DNA of 64,000 nt from NCBI GenBank assembly GCA_963784355.1, contig CAWAQU010000010.1:1-64000 (forward strand). The letters run 5' to 3'. Position 1 is the first letter of the stretch; every line of letters starts with the position of its first letter. The notes under the pieces were generated by a model. The model searched no databases and was not told the DNA's origin. It saw only the letters and a program-made list of their open reading frames with translations. The DNA is from an uncultured bacterium (GTDB lineage: Bacteria > Patescibacteriota > JACMRA01). A program made the position numbers and the translations under genes. Of this stretch, positions 1,502 to 36,606 are shown piece after piece.

Positions 1502-2248
1502 TTATCTTACCTCAATAATTTTTTGTTTATAAAGTTTTGAATCTAAGTAATACTCACCTTGCTTTACCCTAATTAGTCGTAGTACTTTTTGCCCAAAAGC
1601 CTCACACATATTGCGGATTTGGTTATTCTTTCCTTCTGATAAAGTAAATTTATACCACCAAAAATTCCTCTGCAAGCTCAAAAAATTGTACTCATCGTGC
1701 CTAGATTCTACATCGGCAGCTTTGTACAGATTTACCATTACAGGGTTTAACTTTACGCCTTCAAGCGTCATACCACTTTTCATTTCACCCACCTCTTCTT
1801 TTTTCAAAGCGTATTTCAATCCCACAAGATACTCTTTGTCTGATTCATTGCTTGGGTGAGTCAGGGTTTGGATTAATTCGCCACTGGTTGTGAGGACAAG
1901 TAGCCCCTCGCTCATATAGTCTAGCCTCCCTGCATACTTTAAATTTTGGTAAGCTTTTGGTAGTAGATCATAAACAGTCTTTTTGCCAAACTCCGGCTTT
2001 TTTGAAACTAAACTAAATATTGGCTTGTAAAACAATATAGTTCTATCTTCGCCATTACTATTGATATCAACCCACTCACGATTATTATAGTATCTGACCG
2101 AATCACTTTGGCTAATTTGATCAAAAAGCTGACCTATTTCACCGTTGACTTCAACTAGACCTTGAGTAATGTACTTATCTCCTGCTCTCCTGGAGATACC
2201 CAAATTTTGGGCTAAAAATTGATTTAAACGCATAAATATAATTGACAA
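1502..2248 (-). CDS. rRNA pseudouridine synthase (RsuA/RluB/RluF family)
   Basis: N-terminal S4 motif MRLNQFLA..SRR; catalytic GRLD; EGKNNQIR motif. Confidence 0.92.
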   Translation of the reverse strand: MSIIFMRLNQFLAQNLGISRRAGDKYITQGLVEVNGEIGQLFDQISQSDSVRYYNNREWVDINSNGEDRTILFYKPIFSLVSKKPEFGKKTVYDLLPKAYQNLKYAGRLDYMSEGLLVLTTSGELIQTLTHPSNESDKEYLVGLKYALKKEEVGEMKSGMTLEGVKLNPVMVNLYKAADVESRHDEYNFLSLQRNFWWYKFTLSEGKNNQIRNMCEAFGQKVLRLIRVKQGEYYLDSKLYKQKIIEVR

Positions 2249-2276
2249 ACAATAATATCTTAACCTTAAAACAATT

Positions 2277-2618
2277 ATGCAAATTAATCAAATTTTGAGA
2301 TTTAGTTTTTTGCTTGTGGTATTTGTAATTACCTTTTTTTCCATAATTTTGGTAGTTAACAATATGTCTAGTTTAAATAAATATAAAAATGATTTGAAAA
2401 ATAACATCTACAAACAACAAGTTCAAAGGGTTAGTTACAGAAGTGAGATTGAAAGAAAAATTGATGATGAACTTAGGGTGGATGCAGAATCAAAAAAATT
2501 GGAAATTGTTAAATCTAGCGAATTGGGTAGAATAAATGATGCAATTATAAAAGAGGATAAAACAAAAGAGTCAAATACAACTACAGTAACTACACAAAAA
2601 GTACTTGTCGGGTATTAG
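2277..2618 (+). CDS. Small bitopic membrane protein with coiled coil (FtsL-like architecture)
   Basis: N-terminal TM followed by a charged helical region; family uncertain. Confidence 0.55.
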   Translation: MQINQILRFSFLLVVFVITFFSIILVVNNMSSLNKYKNDLKNNIYKQQVQRVSYRSEIERKIDDELRVDAESKKLEIVKSSELGRINDAIIKEDKTKESNTTTVTTQKVLVGY

Positions 2619-2660
2619 CTTGACAATAATTTTCAACTCAGACAGATTTGGAATAATTCT

Positions 2661-3137
2661 ATGAGTAAAGAAACAGAAGCCAAAGTACTAAAAGTAGGTG
2701 ATAAAGCCCCTGATTTTACAGCAAAAAACCAAGCTGGTATTGAGATTAGTTTAAGTAAATTGCTTAAAGAAGGTAAAAAGGTGTTACTAGTATTTTACCC
2801 TGGGGATGATACACCCGGATGTACTTCGCAACTATGCGGAATCAGAGATATTTATAAAGAGTATAAAGATTTAGGTGTTGAAGTTTATGGTGTGAATCAT
2901 GCTGATGAAAAATCCCATCAAAAATTTATAGACAAATATAATTACCAATTTGATATTCTAGTGGATGAAGGAAAACAAATTAGAGATGCTTACGGGGCCG
3001 TTAAAAAGTTTTTTGCTTCATATACTACAAAAAGAGGGGTATTTTTAATAAATCCGAACGGTAATATAGCTTATACGATTTGGGGGCAGCAAGACAATCA
3101 GCAAATTATTAATATGTTAAAAAACCATGAAATATAA
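2661..3137 (+). CDS. bcp: Peroxiredoxin Bcp/PrxQ
   Basis: LKVGDKAPDF, FYPGDDTPGCTSQLC (PxxxTxxC with resolving Cys). Confidence 0.92.
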   Translation: MSKETEAKVLKVGDKAPDFTAKNQAGIEISLSKLLKEGKKVLLVFYPGDDTPGCTSQLCGIRDIYKEYKDLGVEVYGVNHADEKSHQKFIDKYNYQFDILVDEGKQIRDAYGAVKKFFASYTTKRGVFLINPNGNIAYTIWGQQDNQQIINMLKNHEI

Positions 3138-25592: not shown

Positions 25593-25669
25593 GGGCCTTT
25601 AGCTCATTTGGCTAGAGCGCTTCCATGGCATGGAAGAGGCGAGGGGTTCAAATCCCCTAAGGTCCACCA
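25593..25669 (+). tRNA. tRNA-Ala(GGC), prophage integration target
   Basis: GGGCCTT/AAGGTCC with G3:U70; anticodon arm CTTCC-ATGGCAT-GGAAG; GTTCAAA T-loop; CCA. Confidence 0.96.
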
Positions 25670-27171
25670 TAATAATTTTTAGTAGTAAATATAGCCTCTA
25701 AGCCTAGATAAATACTGGACTTTTCGGGTGTTCTAAAACCTGAGTTTGGATCATATACGATATCTCCTGAAAAATTGGTTTTTACGATCAATCTTTTAGT
25801 CGCTAAATCTCCATTATGCCAGTTATCTACTACATTTAAGACATCCTCTAGAAACTTTTTTAGTGGTGTTCTAAAATTTTTCTTGCTAGGTGAATTTAAT
25901 TGTAATTTTATTGTTGTAATCTTTTCTTCAAGAGTTGCTTTTTGAATTTGCAATTCAGTTAATTTATTTTCAAAAGCTTTAAATAAAATATTATTCTCAA
26001 TATTAATTGATTTATCAACTGTATTTGATATTTGTTTATTAATCCCAACTAATTTAGCTTTTGCCTCCTGCTGATCATTCTGGAGGTTTTTTATATTTGC
26101 ATTAATATAGTTCTCAAATATTTTTTCATAGGCTTTTATAATAGATTCTGAGGGCTTATTATTTTCCAATAATTTTATGAATTCATGCTCGAGCTTTTCA
26201 CGGGCAATCATTTTAGAATAATTAACGCATTCTTTATTTGCACAATAATAATATGGGAATTTTTTGTTTGATTTAGATTTTGCAAATGACGCCGTGAAAA
26301 ATTTATTACACTCCGAACATTTAACAATCCTTCTTAATGGAAATTCTTGATTTAAATCTTTAGTGTAGGTTTTTGTTTCCATATTGATTCGACTTAAAAT
26401 TTTGTTGTGGGTTTCAAGGGTTATAATTGGTTCATGTATTGCTTTTGTCAAAGGAATTTTCCAAACAGGAAAATCAAAATAACCAGCATAAATAGGTTTT
26501 TTGATAGCTTCATAAAATCTTTTTACATCAAAATCAAATCCTTTGGATTTAATAAATTCAAATGCTTCAATTCTTGAATGAAAACTACCATTAGCGTAAC
26601 CCTCAAAAGCTTTTTTGAGATGTGTGGCTAGTGGCTCGTCTCGAACAATTGTTTTAGATTTATCAAGTTTCTTCATCGTATAGCCAAGCGGAGGTTTGAG
26701 AATCCAGCGGCCGGCATATAAACAAGCTTCCATGTTATTTCTGACTTTCGTTTCGTTTTCCAACCTATGGTACTGATCTTGCACTGCAGTTATACCAGAA
26801 ACTAAAAACTTTACGTTACTTGATTCTATTGAATTCAAATCAACAGTGACATAATCCGTCATTATATCATATGAGTCAAAAATCTTAGTGTAGCTAAAAA
26901 AGTCTCCAGCATCTCTAAATAGTCTGCTTTGAGAATAGGCTAAAATATAAAAGGGCTCTTTAGCTCGTTTTAAAAATGACATCATTTCTTTGAACGCTGG
27001 TCTGTCAGCATCTTTCGCAGACACACCTGGCTCTTTATAAATTTGGACTATCTCATACCCTCTTCTTACAGCAAGTTGCAGGCACATCAGTTCTTGACTT
27101 TCAATTCCATTGCCCTCTTCGACTTGTCTTTTAGAAGAAACTCTACAGTAAATTACTGCTTTTTTTGTCAT
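25657..27171 (-). CDS. Large serine recombinase (phage integrase)
   Basis: YCRVSS catalytic Ser, SRLFR, recombinase domain PPLGY, zinc ribbon CSEC..YYYCANKEC, coiled coil; stop codon lies inside tRNA-Ala. Confidence 0.95.
   Translation of the reverse strand: MTKKAVIYCRVSSKRQVEEGNGIESQELMCLQLAVRRGYEIVQIYKEPGVSAKDADRPAFKEMMSFLKRAKEPFYILAYSQSRLFRDAGDFFSYTKIFDSYDIMTDYVTVDLNSIESSNVKFLVSGITAVQDQYHRLENETKVRNNMEACLYAGRWILKPPLGYTMKKLDKSKTIVRDEPLATHLKKAFEGYANGSFHSRIEAFEFIKSKGFDFDVKRFYEAIKKPIYAGYFDFPVWKIPLTKAIHEPIITLETHNKILSRINMETKTYTKDLNQEFPLRRIVKCSECNKFFTASFAKSKSNKKFPYYYCANKECVNYSKMIAREKLEHEFIKLLENNKPSESIIKAYEKIFENYINANIKNLQNDQQEAKAKLVGINKQISNTVDKSINIENNILFKAFENKLTELQIQKATLEEKITTIKLQLNSPSKKNFRTPLKKFLEDVLNVVDNWHNGDLATKRLIVKTNFSGDIVYDPNSGFRTPEKSSIYLGLEAIFTTKNYYGGP
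25662..25670 (+). repeat. attL core GTCCACCAT
   Basis: 3' end of tRNA-Ala, repeated at 63778-63786. Confidence 0.75.
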
Positions 27172-27818: not shown

Positions 27819-28099
27819 AAGTTTTTGTTTATATTTTAGTACCCCCTATTGTAGTTTTTTCCCGTCCTGACCCCCCCCGGGGGGAGGGGGTGGGGGGGGT
27901 AAATGTTGTGTTTTAGTGAGCAGGGGAGGGGACTAGAAACTGTAGTCAATAATATAGTTGTATATATTATCGTTTTGTAAGTCTCTTAATGCATCTCTCA
28001 TTGCTTTGATTTCCAATTTGTGTATTTTATTGTAGTATTTGTTTTTGTTAAATTTGGTCATATTGTTTGGTTGTTTTGGTTTATAATACTTTTTTGATT

Positions 28100-30881: not shown

Positions 30882-31285
30882 ATGTTAAAGTAAGGGAATT
30901 TACTTTAACGCATAGACCCTCGTTTGCTCGGGGGTTTTTTCTATGCGAAAAAGTTTTAAACTACATTGTTTTTTTTCTTACATACCAGCGTCGCAGCAGG
31001 CTAGAATAAATTGCCCGAGGGTGTCCCTCTAATTTGTAAGCCGTCTGTAAAACTTAATTAATTTCTTAATTCTATTTAATTATAGAGAAGTTTTTAAACT
31101 ATGTCAAGTAAAATTTGCTTGAACTAAATAAAACAAGCAATAAAGCTAAATTACTACATCACTTCCCCACCAAATACCCTTGATAATTGACAAGAGGGAG
31201 GATACTAAGTAGATATGTATTTGTCGTGTTTCTATTAGTCTAGAATTGATGTTTGACATTTAGCTGAAAGTAAGTATTCATAATT

Positions 31286-33945: not shown

Positions 33946-34152
33946 ATGGAAGAGTATAAAAAAAATATAGCTTTATTTTCTGTTTTAGAACTGCTAGTTC
34001 CCATTTTAAAAGATGATCCAGAGTTAAATGCAAAAGTTATTCATAGGTGCAGAATAACAAATGTAAACAAATATGTTGTTTTGATTAATGTACTGGAGTT
34101 TATTCAGACAAGTCGATATAATCCATCCAGTCTTGAAACCAGCCAGTTCTAA
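33946..34152 (+). CDS. Small hypothetical protein
   Basis: ORF with a TTGACA promoter-like element at ~33881. Confidence 0.4.
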   Translation: MEEYKKNIALFSVLELLVPILKDDPELNAKVIHRCRITNVNKYVVLINVLEFIQTSRYNPSSLETSQF

Positions 34153-34609
34153 TAAATTTTGCAAAGCCTCTAACTTTTTGATCTATAGGCTGAGCTTTAA
34201 GATGTGCTACCTGAGTAGGGTATGCGACAATGTATTTTCTACCATCAATTTTCTCTGTACCCATCAGTCCATTGTCTTCCATAAACCCAACAGCGTCAAA
34301 ACCCTGTTTCAAGTTTACGATTTCTTCCAAATAAAGCTGCCCATTTTTATTTCTAAGCCAGTCCAATTTTTTATATGAGTCTATTGTATTCCTTGAAAGA
34401 TACCCTTTCAAAATTTCAGCCGCTCTGTAAACAGTAATGAGTTTCCAGTCTTTGGGTATAACTGGATAGTTTTTCTTCATTGATAGGCTAAAAGCCTGTA
34501 CCACTTTTCTTGTTTGATCCATCTCAGTTTTAGTTAGTGACCATAAAGAGCAAAGTTTATCAAAGCACTCCTTGCTGGTCTTAATTTTTTTCTCTATTAA
34601 AAGAATCAT
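34100..34609 (-). CDS. Protein with excisionase/MerR-type HTH; candidate non-canonical repressor
   Basis: LITVYRAAEILKGYLSRNTIDSYKKLDWL; divergent from the rightward lytic operon. Confidence 0.55.
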   Translation of the reverse strand: MILLIEKKIKTSKECFDKLCSLWSLTKTEMDQTRKVVQAFSLSMKKNYPVIPKDWKLITVYRAAEILKGYLSRNTIDSYKKLDWLRNKNGQLYLEEIVNLKQGFDAVGFMEDNGLMGTEKIDGRKYIVAYPTQVAHLKAQPIDQKVRGFAKFIRTGWFQDWMDYIDLSE

Positions 34610-34619
34610 ATATTTTTGA

Positions 34620-34760
34620 TTATGTCAATTATATTTTGGATGAACTAATATGGAAAAAAGCCACATTTGAACGTATGCAGTTAGACTAATACAAGAGTAT
34701 TAAACTGTCAACCAAATCTTGCTTGACATAAGATAAAAATTATTTTATACATACAACTAA
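34620..34760. promoter_or_regulatory. Back-to-back divergent sigma70-type promoters (lysis/lysogeny switch region)
   Basis: TGTCAA-N11-TTGACA at 34706-34728, with TTGACA followed by a TATACA-like -10 element. Confidence 0.55.
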
Positions 34761-34770
34761 CTACGAAGTT

Positions 34771-34989
34771 ATGTATAGCGACCCACAAGAAATTTTAGAT
34801 ATCTTAAAAGTAGATCGCCCAAATCTTACTTTGGATGATGTCATTCAGATTATTGTTTACGGTGAAACTACGGCAAAAAGAGTATGCGATGATTACGATC
34901 GGGAAGTAACAGAAAAAGAAACAAAACAAAACGCTAAATCTACCAAACTCCAAAAGCAACATGAATTAGTCAAGGCAACAATGAGCTAA
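34771..34989 (+). CDS. Small protein in the Cro position
   Basis: First rightward gene after the divergent promoters. Confidence 0.55.
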   Translation: MYSDPQEILDILKVDRPNLTLDDVIQIIVYGETTAKRVCDDYDREVTEKETKQNAKSTKLQKQHELVKATMS

Positions 34990-35021
34990 GCTAGAACACA
35001 ACTGCTTTTGTAATCAAAAAC

Positions 35022-35415
35022 CATAGACTGCTGCCCTAAAGCCGAAACGCATAGGTGCGGTTTTCTGTGTCTACATTTTGAAGATTGATAGCTGAGTAGG
35101 GTGGTGGCATCCTACTCAGCTACGAGTCTTTAAGACTCAAGATTGAAGGTTAGAAGAAGCGGTGGCGGACAGTGAGCCGTACAGCAAATATCTAGTGTGC
35201 TATCGAGTTAAAACCGAAAAGGTCTCCGCATCTAGTTGGCGATACCTAAGATATTATCTGGCTATACCCAGCAGTCGAACAAATGCTACGCCTAGATCAT
35301 GCAAGTCAAACCTTGCTCGCTTCTTCCAGCCTTTTTTCGCAAAAGGGAGGTTTGGATTGTTTTGTTGCATGAATAGATGAGATCAATATGATGGCTCATA
35401 GGGTCTCATCTATTC
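35022..35415 (+). ncRNA. Putative structured non-coding RNA cluster
   Basis: Six adjacent stems including 15-bp and 14-bp hairpins and a 184-nt domain closed by a 14-bp helix; G-U wobbles favour the + strand. Confidence 0.6.
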
Positions 35416-35604
35416 TGAAGCTTCAATTAATATAATTTTTATGCTTAAGTACGACGCTGAAATAAAACACATGATCTGGGAATTATCTCAAGAATATCCA
35501 CGTAAGTACATATCAACTCTTTTAAATATTCCATACTCAAGTTGCTGCAAAATAATCCAAGAGCAAGAGGTTTATAGCAATAAATACAATCCACTTTTTT
35601 AATT

Positions 35605-36606
35605 ATGCAATATAATTTTGACATCAATCAAAAAGCAATAGTCGAACTAAGCAAAACGACTGGTGTCAAACTTGGTTTACAAGAAGCTGTAATAATAGAT
35701 TTTATTGCAAAATTTGCACATAGCGGGGAGTGTGAGGTAATTATAATTGAAGGCAAAGTATACTACTGGTTAGCTTATAGTAAAATAATAGAAGAGTGTC
35801 CACTTTTGGGAATCAAAAATAAAGAAGTCCTGGCCCGTAAAATTGAATTACTAGAAAATGCAGGAATATTATTAAAACATTATGAGGCGGGTAAAGTTAG
35901 AAAAACTTATTTTGCTTTCGGTCCAAACTATAAACATATAGTATTTGATTATAAGAAGAATAAACAAGATGTAGGGGGTACCATGCCGACTGAAAAGTCG
36001 AGTCTAGATGAGGCCATGCCGACTGAAAAGTCGAGTACCATGCCGACTGAAAAGTCGAACTATCATAATACCATTGATCATACTTCTACTCCTGAAAATT
36101 TTGATGTTGAAAATACCGAAGCACATATAAAACAAATTACAAGGTTAGCTTTAGACATAAAGATGCCTTACTACCCTCAAATTTGCAAAAATAACCCACT
36201 TTTAACTGATACTGATATTTCCAATATTTGTATGAAGGTTGTTTTATCAAATCCAAATGAGGGGCCAAATGCTTTAATGAAAAAAGTATTGAGTTGGTCC
36301 AGAACCGAAGCCAAATCAGAACCAAGAACTTTTGGCCCAAAGAAAAAGGAGATTTTTGAAGCGTACTGGGATGATTACAATTCAAGAGAAGAGTTAGAGC
36401 AGGCTATTTCCAAGGCTATAAGTGAGGGTAAGGAAGTTAAAAGATATATGATACCAGTGAATGCTCTTAAAAAATGGGGTGAGGAAACTAGTGATCTAGC
36501 TAAAACTTTGGCTACTAAACTTAGTACCAAGCCAGATATTAATCAAGGAAACAGAGAAGAGGACAACCGTAAAAATGAATTAGAAAAACAACTTAAACAA
36601 CTATAA
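35605..36606 (+). CDS. Phage replication initiator (N-terminal wHTH, internal iterons)
   Basis: INQKAI..L..AVIIDFI..GKVYYWLAYSKI..P.L motif; triple MPTEKS repeat. Confidence 0.8.
   Translation: MQYNFDINQKAIVELSKTTGVKLGLQEAVIIDFIAKFAHSGECEVIIIEGKVYYWLAYSKIIEECPLLGIKNKEVLARKIELLENAGILLKHYEAGKVRKTYFAFGPNYKHIVFDYKKNKQDVGGTMPTEKSSLDEAMPTEKSSTMPTEKSNYHNTIDHTSTPENFDVENTEAHIKQITRLALDIKMPYYPQICKNNPLLTDTDISNICMKVVLSNPNEGPNALMKKVLSWSRTEAKSEPRTFGPKKKEIFEAYWDDYNSREELEQAISKAISEGKEVKRYMIPVNALKKWGEETSDLAKTLATKLSTKPDINQGNREEDNRKNELEKQLKQL
35981..36058. repeat. Replication-origin iterons: 3x CCATGCCGACTGAAAAGTCGA
   Basis: Exact 21-mers at 35981, 36014 and 36038, each with dyad CGACT-N4-AGTCG, followed by AT-rich DNA. 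Confidence 0.85.

Follow-up and report, generated by a model that had tools for sequence, protein, structure and literature searches.

A new family of structured elements in phages, with a member upstream of a probable replication initiator gene in a Patescibacteriota prophage

What is the role of a GC-rich, densely structured stretch of non-coding DNA in the prophage of an uncultured member of the Patescibacteriota? The stretch (positions 35000-35420) lies upstream of a probable replication initiator gene, in a 64,000-nt segment of contig CAWAQU010000010.1 (assembly GCA_963784355.1) hereafter called the window. An original prediction, made from the letters alone, had listed six structural features there, all of which are present in the sequence, and had proposed a novel phage non-coding RNA serving immunity, antitermination or replication control. 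Here, we report that the middle part of the stretch, 35146-35332 on the + strand, belongs to a new family of structured elements that is absent from Rfam 15 and occurs in unrelated contexts in uncultivated phages. Our preferred reading, in which we have modest confidence, is that the window element is a stable RNA cut from an early transcript and acting in trans via its invariant segments.

A family of covarying elements in uncultivated phages

All members of the family were gathered from IMG/VR using one exact 16-mer, GGCGGACAGUGAGCCG, taken from the 5' edge of the middle domain. It is found at 46 loci, 25 non-duplicate ones of which share the full architecture described below; the high-GC loci are chance matches in coding DNA. 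The family is thus far known from ~30 uncultivated phages, with GC contents from 29% to 58%. Its members, which range from 96 to 249 nt, follow a common plan: a closing stem of 9-26 bp whose sequence is free (P1), the 16-mer atop the 5' arm and preceded by U or A, an insert, and a hairpin with a UCAAAC loop placed directly before the 3' arm. In the window, P1 consists of 14 Watson-Crick pairs, 2 G-U pairs and 1 A-C mismatch, in the same register as in the 25 other members.

Profile-based searches identified the same domain. The window sequence aligns by nhmmer over ~170-210 nt to five IMG/VR loci, with E values of 8e-6 to 2e-4. A covariance model built from nine short members with the window excluded (model R3) matches positions 35146-35332 on the + strand with 57.2 bits (E 2.2e-12) over its full length (model positions 1-131), and it also finds six loci outside its seed.

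Covariation was assessed in an alignment of 26 sequences, for the 17 pairs of P1 and the 5 pairs of the 3' hairpin. Paired cells amount to 86.9%, compared with 58.7% in shuffles (0/500), and cells changed on both sides number 161 rather than the 49.6 of the shuffles (0/500). The covariation score is 0.639 vs 0.187 in shuffles, none of 500 reaching it, and it falls to 0.14-0.21 when the partners are slid. Changes on both sides affect 21 of the 22 pairs, namely all 17 pairs of P1, in which 83.6% of the cells are paired, and four of the five pairs of the hairpin, whose stem occurs as GCAAG/CUUGC, GCAGG/CCUGC, GCGAG/CUCGC, GCUAG/CUAGC and GUAAG/CUUAC.

The covariation and the match of a model that had not seen the window together establish that the domain originally predicted as a 184-nt multibranch structure is a true conserved structured element, whose interior is the variable part. 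Its closing stem is real and kept as P1 in the family; the multibranch interior has no thermodynamic support. Relative to shuffled sequences, the interior (35162-35317) has a z score of +0.28, and the same segment with its closing stem reaches -2.2, against a background of 197 windows with a mean z of -0.1, a standard deviation of 1.0 and a minimum of -3.2. The test is insensitive, since the RNase P RNA of the host itself scores only -1.0.

The original prediction had suggested searching Rfam and collecting homologues with covariation, and these searches gave, respectively, no known family on the element and the phage family described above. At the gathering score, Rfam 15 yields only two tRNAs in the whole window, both elsewhere; between 34600 and 35800, at E values up to 10, it returns only microRNA-precursor hairpin noise on the flanking hairpin H2 (see below). 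Nine member loci queried at E values up to 1 gave no match on the element either. The motif strings were not found in the full-text literature, a kind of search that another wording or name for the motif would escape.

Plain similarity searches gave no homologue. A 451-nt DNA query found nothing in 60 relatives, the host's own genome, GenBank phages or plasmids, and a 55-nt query found nothing in phages at E values up to 10. Combined nhmmer and blastn searches gave no match in 93 terminase and ParB-methylase loci and no true match in 80 initiator loci. Two short hits upstream of initiator genes (L117 and L120) were discarded as chance, and GC-rich stretches at the equivalent place in two other initiator relatives (L107 and L108) turned out to be SSB-like genes. 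The element is single-copy in the host genome, and no complementarity or likeness beyond chance links it to the rest of that genome, its rRNAs or its RNase P RNA.

The family is not tied to replication genes or to any other neighbouring gene. No neighbouring protein is common to more than three member loci, and model R3 detects the element neither in 13 terminase-related loci nor in ~75 loci that contain a relative of the 333-residue initiator gene. Its matches in 150 genomes of the phylum are unconvincing: of three weak ones (24-27 bits), two were inspected, one of which is coding-like and devoid of the hairpin and the other doubtful. In 3 of the 25 member loci (L222, L226 and L244), a tRNA gene lies on the same strand at most 25 nt away, L244 being a tRNA array. 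The nearest downstream open reading frame (ORF) is co-oriented with the element in 19 of 24 loci, according to a hand count on crude ORF calls. Of note, the L244 locus (viral contig G170, ~2000-3120) contains, in order, a TROVE/Ro60 ORF, a weak YrlA-like match, tRNA-Lys, tRNA-Ile, the element and more tRNAs.

The surrounding stretch and its flanking hairpins

As originally noted, positions 35000-35420 are richer in GC than their flanks (0.45-0.47 vs 0.27-0.36). The intergenic region that contains them, 34990-35604, ranks 9th in GC among the 268 intergenic regions of the genome, and the eight that exceed it correspond to 16S rRNA, 23S rRNA, RNase P RNA, three tRNA regions and two high-GC contig ends. 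The latter, C4:1-509 and C13:1-6041, have 66% and 58% GC and no Rfam match, and are possibly foreign DNA or a binning error.

The stretch is non-coding: none of its reading frames scores as coding. In particular, the 72-codon ORF at 35162-35380, which the original prediction had considered as a potential conserved protein, has a codon score of -0.18 (0.28 +/- 0.13 in real genes) and no periodicity of GC at third codon positions, and it has no homologue in 5.8 billion proteins and no Pfam or NCBIfam match. The possibility of a pseudogene was rejected, as none of the 9548 ORFs of the collected loci matched the region significantly after correction.

Over the whole 431 nt, folding is far better than in shuffles on both strands (z -5.6 on + and -5.7 on -). 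In 150-nt windows of the + strand, this stability resides in the two ends, with z scores of -6.8 at 35000-35140 and -4.7 at 35300-35415, vs +0.5 to +1.4 in the middle. The ends are occupied by three hairpins, H1, H2 and H6 (Table 1). H2, which extends on the + strand the 15-bp hairpin of the original prediction, is the strongest 70-nt hairpin of the 64 kb (-37.6 kcal/mol, for a mean of -9.0 and a standard deviation of 4.3) as well as the longest inverted repeat within 200 nt across the window, and is a candidate substrate for a double-strand RNase. H1 and H2 alone, which span 114 nt, have a z score of -7.3, and H6 is the fourth strongest + hairpin of the window. Two smaller predicted features are less convincing: GAGTCT/AGACTC is present but competes with the extension of H2, and CCTTTT/AAAAGG is weak (-4.3 kcal/mol).

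The original argument for a + strand RNA, based on G-U wobbles, is suggestive rather than decisive. H1, H2 and H6 together contain 9 G-U pairs on the + strand vs 1 on the - strand, because of which the strong hairpins are 5-9 kcal/mol better on +. Intrinsic terminators were not found by a scan of 34000-36000, H2 and H6 being devoid of a T tract, and terminator-like sites in the prophage do not exceed chance (11 vs 9.9 expected and 13 vs 11.2 expected). Repeats of the hairpin motifs elsewhere in the window are likewise at chance level.

The three hairpins are real but specific to this window. A covariance model of H1 and H2 (model R1) has no match in 94 sources, 150 genomes of the phylum and 25 genomes of the family, and in the window it retrieves only itself and its own reverse strand, with no second copy. 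Among the other family members, 4 of 25 have a top-5% hairpin upstream of the element and 3 of 24 have one downstream. The prediction of a novel phage non-coding RNA thus stands as a candidate for 35146-35332, given its covariation and lack of an Rfam match; it does not hold for the 400 nt as one RNA, since the flanking hairpins are not kept in the other members.

Table 1. Features of the structured stretch and its neighbourhood, in window positions
Feature	Position	Strand	Remarks
Conserved family member (P1, 5' motif, insert, 3' hairpin)	35146..35332	+	model R3 and nhmmer
P1, 5' arm	35146..35162	+	pairs with 35317-35333
5' motif, U-GGCGGACAGUGAGCCG	35163..35179	+	16-mer itself at 35164-35179
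Variable insert	35180..35300	+	121 nt here; 34-165 nt in other members
3' hairpin, GCAAG-UCAAAC-CUUGC	35301..35316	+	covarying stem, nearly invariant loop
P1, 3' arm	35317..35333	+	continues into T6 tract 35332-35337
H1, interrupted hairpin	35022..35069	+	3 G-U on +; -19.1 kcal/mol on +, -11.7 on -
H2, 26-28-bp helix	35076..35135	+	2x2 internal loop, GUGG loop; -37.5 kcal/mol
H6, 12-bp perfect arms and small apical hairpin	35371..35415	+	-26.4 kcal/mol on +, -21.6 on -
Promoter-like TTGACA-17-TATACA (putative, read by eye)	34723..34751	+	ahead of the 72-aa ORF
72-aa ORF, cro position	34771..34989	+	codon score 0.358, like real genes
53-aa ORF, doubtful	35441..35602	+	codon score 0.014; AT-rich last third of the gap
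333-aa probable replication initiator	35605..36606	+	N-terminal winged helix of ~120 aa, disordered linker, helical C-terminus
Three direct repeats (iterons), CCATGCCGACTGAAAAGTCGA	35978..36058	+	21-24 nt, small internal palindrome in each

Prophage setting and the neighbouring probable initiator gene

The host has a 1.14-Mb genome with 33.5% GC, in a phylum of small genomes, and the window is part of its contig C10. The prophage extends from a tRNA-Ala gene (25593-25669) and a large serine recombinase gene (25657-27171, -) to past 63 kb, and encodes a Sak4-like ATPase, ParA, RusA, a ParB-methylase, a terminase, a portal protein and tail proteins. The structured stretch lies inside a 615-nt gap, 34990-35604, flanked on one side by a well-scoring 72-aa ORF and on the other by the 333-aa ORF.

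Family searches gave no match for the 72-aa ORF at the position of cro. The original statement that no CI is visible holds only insofar as the family searches recognised no repressor. The promoter-like site ahead of this ORF, which the promoter scan missed because its second hexamer lacks the final T, would launch a rightward early transcript ~263 nt upstream of H1. The 53-aa ORF, the stop codon of which lies 2 nt upstream of the initiator ATG, has no family and no homologue in the collected loci, and possibly represents a leader ORF or an AT-rich untranslated leader. In the AT-rich segment before the initiator gene (35500-35595), we observed by eye four same-strand copies of A-W-W-W-TCCA (ATATCCAC, TATTCCAT, TAATCCAA and CAATCCAC), which loosely resemble DnaA boxes; three of them are proline codons of the doubtful ORF.

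Genetic code table 25, which would open a 124-aa frame in the region, was rejected: 522 of 770 long frames have no in-frame TGA, and the host therefore reads table 11. Over 431 long frames, its stops are TGA in 24 cases, TAA in 275 and TAG in 132, TGA not being read as sense. Shine-Dalgarno-like sequences precede 32 of 657 starts in the host genome, and none is evident ahead of the 39 prophage starts shown. A leader peptide at GGGAGG (35345-35350) was dropped, as this organism hardly uses Shine-Dalgarno sites.

Elsewhere in the prophage, the gap between the left-arm genes and parA contains a perfect leftward promoter, TTGACA-17-TATAAT (31079-31107, -), and a clean terminator (30914-30937, +), and may be the true early-left control region. 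In the left arm, the C8, G6 and G8 runs of a 281-nt intergenic gap (27819-28099) form a G/C-rich palindrome; with -47.3 kcal/mol on + and 50% GC, 27820-27950 is the second strongest hairpin region of the window.

The description of the 333-aa gene as a replication initiator is reasonable, given its weak RepA_N/DnaD-like fold and its linker iterons. Through a conserved N-terminal domain of ~115 aa, the protein has 1295 relatives; it has no Pfam match, and searches of IMG/VR, of 60 related genomes and, by words, of 5.8 billion proteins revealed no close relative. Its structure model has a predicted local distance difference test (pLDDT) score of 78, falling below 50 in the linker (residues 122-166). 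The best matches of the model in the PDB are staphylococcal RepA (4pql, 4pt7 and 5kbj; E 1.8e-3 to 7.5e-3, template modelling scores of 0.55-0.57 on the target) and the N-domain of DnaD, all of them weak. The iterons encode a repeated MPTEKS peptide of the disordered linker. In pSK41 Rep, the gene similarly encodes a ~120-aa N-terminal DNA-binding domain, carries repeats in the DNA for its central linker and is preceded by a structured leader (PMC5703833). By analogy with this layout, the iterons in the linker DNA place the origin of replication most likely at 35978-36058, inside the initiator gene and hence not in the structured region.

Strong hairpins also precede the genes of initiator relatives. 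Of 60 de-duplicated loci, 23 place a top-5% hairpin in the 160 nt upstream of the ATG, compared with 3 expected, and for 16 of these 23 no hairpin of the locus is stronger. These leader hairpins, found in loci L096-L194 (e.g., L161:2921-2990, L167:2921-2990 and L166:2891-2960), are a mix of plain terminators and Y-shaped structures without a T tract; they have no Rfam match and are unrelated to the hairpins of the window. Five of the loci share a leader element of ~110 nt with a three-way junction (L144:238-362, L148:2659-2783, L158:1090-1214, L182:2376-2500 and L191:2376-2500), in which 98% of the cells are paired and three pairs have changed on both sides. Many of the changes occur via G-U on the sense strand, and one of the sequences comes from a Paceibacterota genome. 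Given the strong hairpins of the initiator relatives, a cis-regulatory role is possible for H1, H2 and H6.

Possible roles of the element

We infer the strand, transcription, processing, trans action and partner of the element as follows. It would be transcribed with the rightward early genes of the prophage, and cuts within or next to the long double-stranded P1 would free it as a stable small RNA. In the window, the long hairpins nearby, H2 and H6, would probably take part in this release, the host possessing a gene for RNase III; in phages whose element adjoins tRNA genes, release would come about by tRNA-type processing. The RNA would then act in trans, its two invariant single-stranded or loop segments binding a conserved protein or RNA partner in the manner of Y RNAs. 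More tentatively, the family might constitute a new class of phage stable RNAs whose 16-mer and UCAAAC loop dock onto a widely conserved factor of the host or the phage, as a Y RNA-like adaptor or decoy in RNA quality control, tRNA metabolism or anti-defence, with release by double-strand-specific or tRNA-type processing.

The conserved segments of the element presumably differ from the Ro60-binding helix. In overall design, the element resembles the Y RNAs and the bacterial or phage Y RNA-like RNAs YrlA and Yrn2, which are partners of Ro60/Rsr: as described in PMC4201824, these combine a long stem joining the 5' and 3' ends, an adjacent conserved segment and a variable internal module, some share a precursor transcript with tRNAs, and phages also carry them. 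Y RNA sizes of 80-130 nt overlap the lower end of the family's range, and member L244 sits in a locus with tRNA genes and a TROVE gene, where a weak YrlA match precedes it by ~400 nt. Unlike YrlA, the element has no tRNA-like domain according to ARAGORN or the Rfam tRNA model.

Another comparison is offered by GOLLD and ROOL, large phage-associated RNAs discovered through comparative genomics, which are 500-800 nt long, have many conserved helices and are in Rfam. The family studied here differs in having only two conserved helices and two short invariant segments, in its smaller size and in its lack of an Rfam match. The likeness is that GOLLD and ROOL (PMC12286853) too are structured, GC-rich and non-coding, reside in phages or prophages, sometimes lie beside tRNA genes and have no known function.

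Several observations weigh against a stable, trans-acting RNA. The 16-mer is identical in 26 of the 26 aligned members partly by construction, because they were collected by that exact 16-mer; the members found by model R3 carry the motif too. The insert of the window element is no more stable than shuffled sequences. In P1 across the family, 31 G-U pairs vs 21 A-C mismatches make a slight + bias only, and covariation does not discriminate between an RNA hairpin and a hairpin of single-stranded DNA. The YrlA model of Rfam has no match on the element, either in the window or in nine member loci. One of four element-carrying viral records contains a TROVE gene; searches of the three others, which are complete, and of the 81%-complete host genome gave none. 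Finally, no RNA run is listed with the stretch; the only matching sequencing run is a low-coverage DNA run, with 27% of words and three short identical contigs, in which 34982-35599 is uncovered.

The alternative that survives best, which we regard as unlikely, is that the region works in cis, as leader or attenuator of the replication operon. P1 and the T6 tract would then terminate or gate transcription after the cro-like gene and ahead of the 53-aa ORF and the initiator gene, and H1, H2 and H6 would serve in processing or stability or as a put-like antiterminator. The location between the cro-like ORF and the initiator gene and the continuation of the 3' arm of P1 into six T residues fit this proposal, as do the excess of strong leader hairpins in initiator relatives and the Y-shaped leader kept in the five-sequence subgroup. 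In addition, 35342-35368 is predicted to pair with 35574-35598 in a long-range helix, by which the start region of the initiator gene would be covered. However, the element occurs in unrelated contexts, including tRNA arrays, and is absent from the initiator-family and terminase-related loci searched with model R3; the other members, inspected by eye, do not retain the T tract after P1. A terminator that encloses a 154-nt 'loop' would be unusual, terminator-like sites are about as frequent in the prophage as chance predicts, the 81%-complete host genome yielded no Rho, and the leader hairpins of the initiator relatives are unrelated to those of the window.

The comparison with the put RNA of phage HK022 concerns H1 and H2, the conserved family element being a separate thing. 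H1 and H2 are two adjacent stem-loops after a cro-sized gene, ~263 nt from the promoter-like site, and PMC9378689 places putR ~270 nt past the PR start. The put RNA is ~70 nt long with two similar copies per phage, unlike the larger and single-copy H1-H2 pair, and here the prophage has no evident terminators to overcome. The unrelated contexts of the element, its absence from initiator loci, the terminators at chance level and the lack of a put-like second copy also speak against the immunity, antitermination and replication-control roles originally proposed. Antisense control as in pSK41 is a further comparison: RNAI, of ~83 nt, pairs ~100 nt upstream of the start, whereas the window hairpins lie 190-580 nt upstream, and the sole candidate for a counter-promoter is a 9-of-12 match, at chance frequency. 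In the review PMC5703833, such antisense-RNA control is described as not seen in RepA_N plasmids outside staphylococci.

Somewhat less probable again is a function at the DNA level, in which the element would form a hairpin or cruciform used in single-stranded DNA, serving for example in priming or single-strand initiation, in recombination or as a palindrome bound by a protein, with the conserved segments as protein recognition sites. Folding far better than shuffles on both strands is compatible with this view, the covariation of P1 would be equally expected of a DNA hairpin, the excess of G-U over A-C in P1 is small, and the element is 650 nt from the iterons of the probable origin. On the other hand, each of the strong hairpins of the window is better on the + strand, the element is co-oriented with the flanking genes in most loci and abuts same-strand tRNA genes in three, and such a high GC content is otherwise found in this AT-rich genome only in RNA genes. 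Its absence from the initiator relatives also means that it is not a site for that initiator.

A small mobile or selfish insertion, i.e., a miniature inverted-repeat element, an intron-like element or a self-cleaving ribozyme that landed in the early region with its own signals at its conserved ends, is very improbable, for despite terminal inverted repeats with conserved sub-terminal motifs, a scattered distribution across unrelated phages without a conserved neighbour and a GC content foreign to the host, the element is single-copy in the genome, its 'inverted repeats' change in sequence from one member to the next, unlike the conserved ends of transposons, inspection by eye shows no target duplication at its borders in the window, and no ribozyme or intron family of Rfam matches at E values up to 10.

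Classes of structured RNA that combine strong covariation with an invariant core are rarely found, and structured RNAs of phages, such as GOLLD, ROOL and the Y-like RNAs, turned out to be unexpectedly elaborate. The present family is short enough for synthesis and probing, and the perfect conservation of its 16-nt segment suggests that the binding partner is conserved as well. Three things are now separated at this locus: the conserved RNA element, the long hairpins specific to the window and the probable origin inside the initiator gene. The recurrent strong hairpin before genes of the initiator family provides a second, independent lead, on the control of replication genes in such phages. 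If the element is indeed a stable RNA acting in trans, it would represent a new phage tool to rewire host RNA metabolism, used in very different hosts, including bacteria with small genomes that resemble episymbionts.

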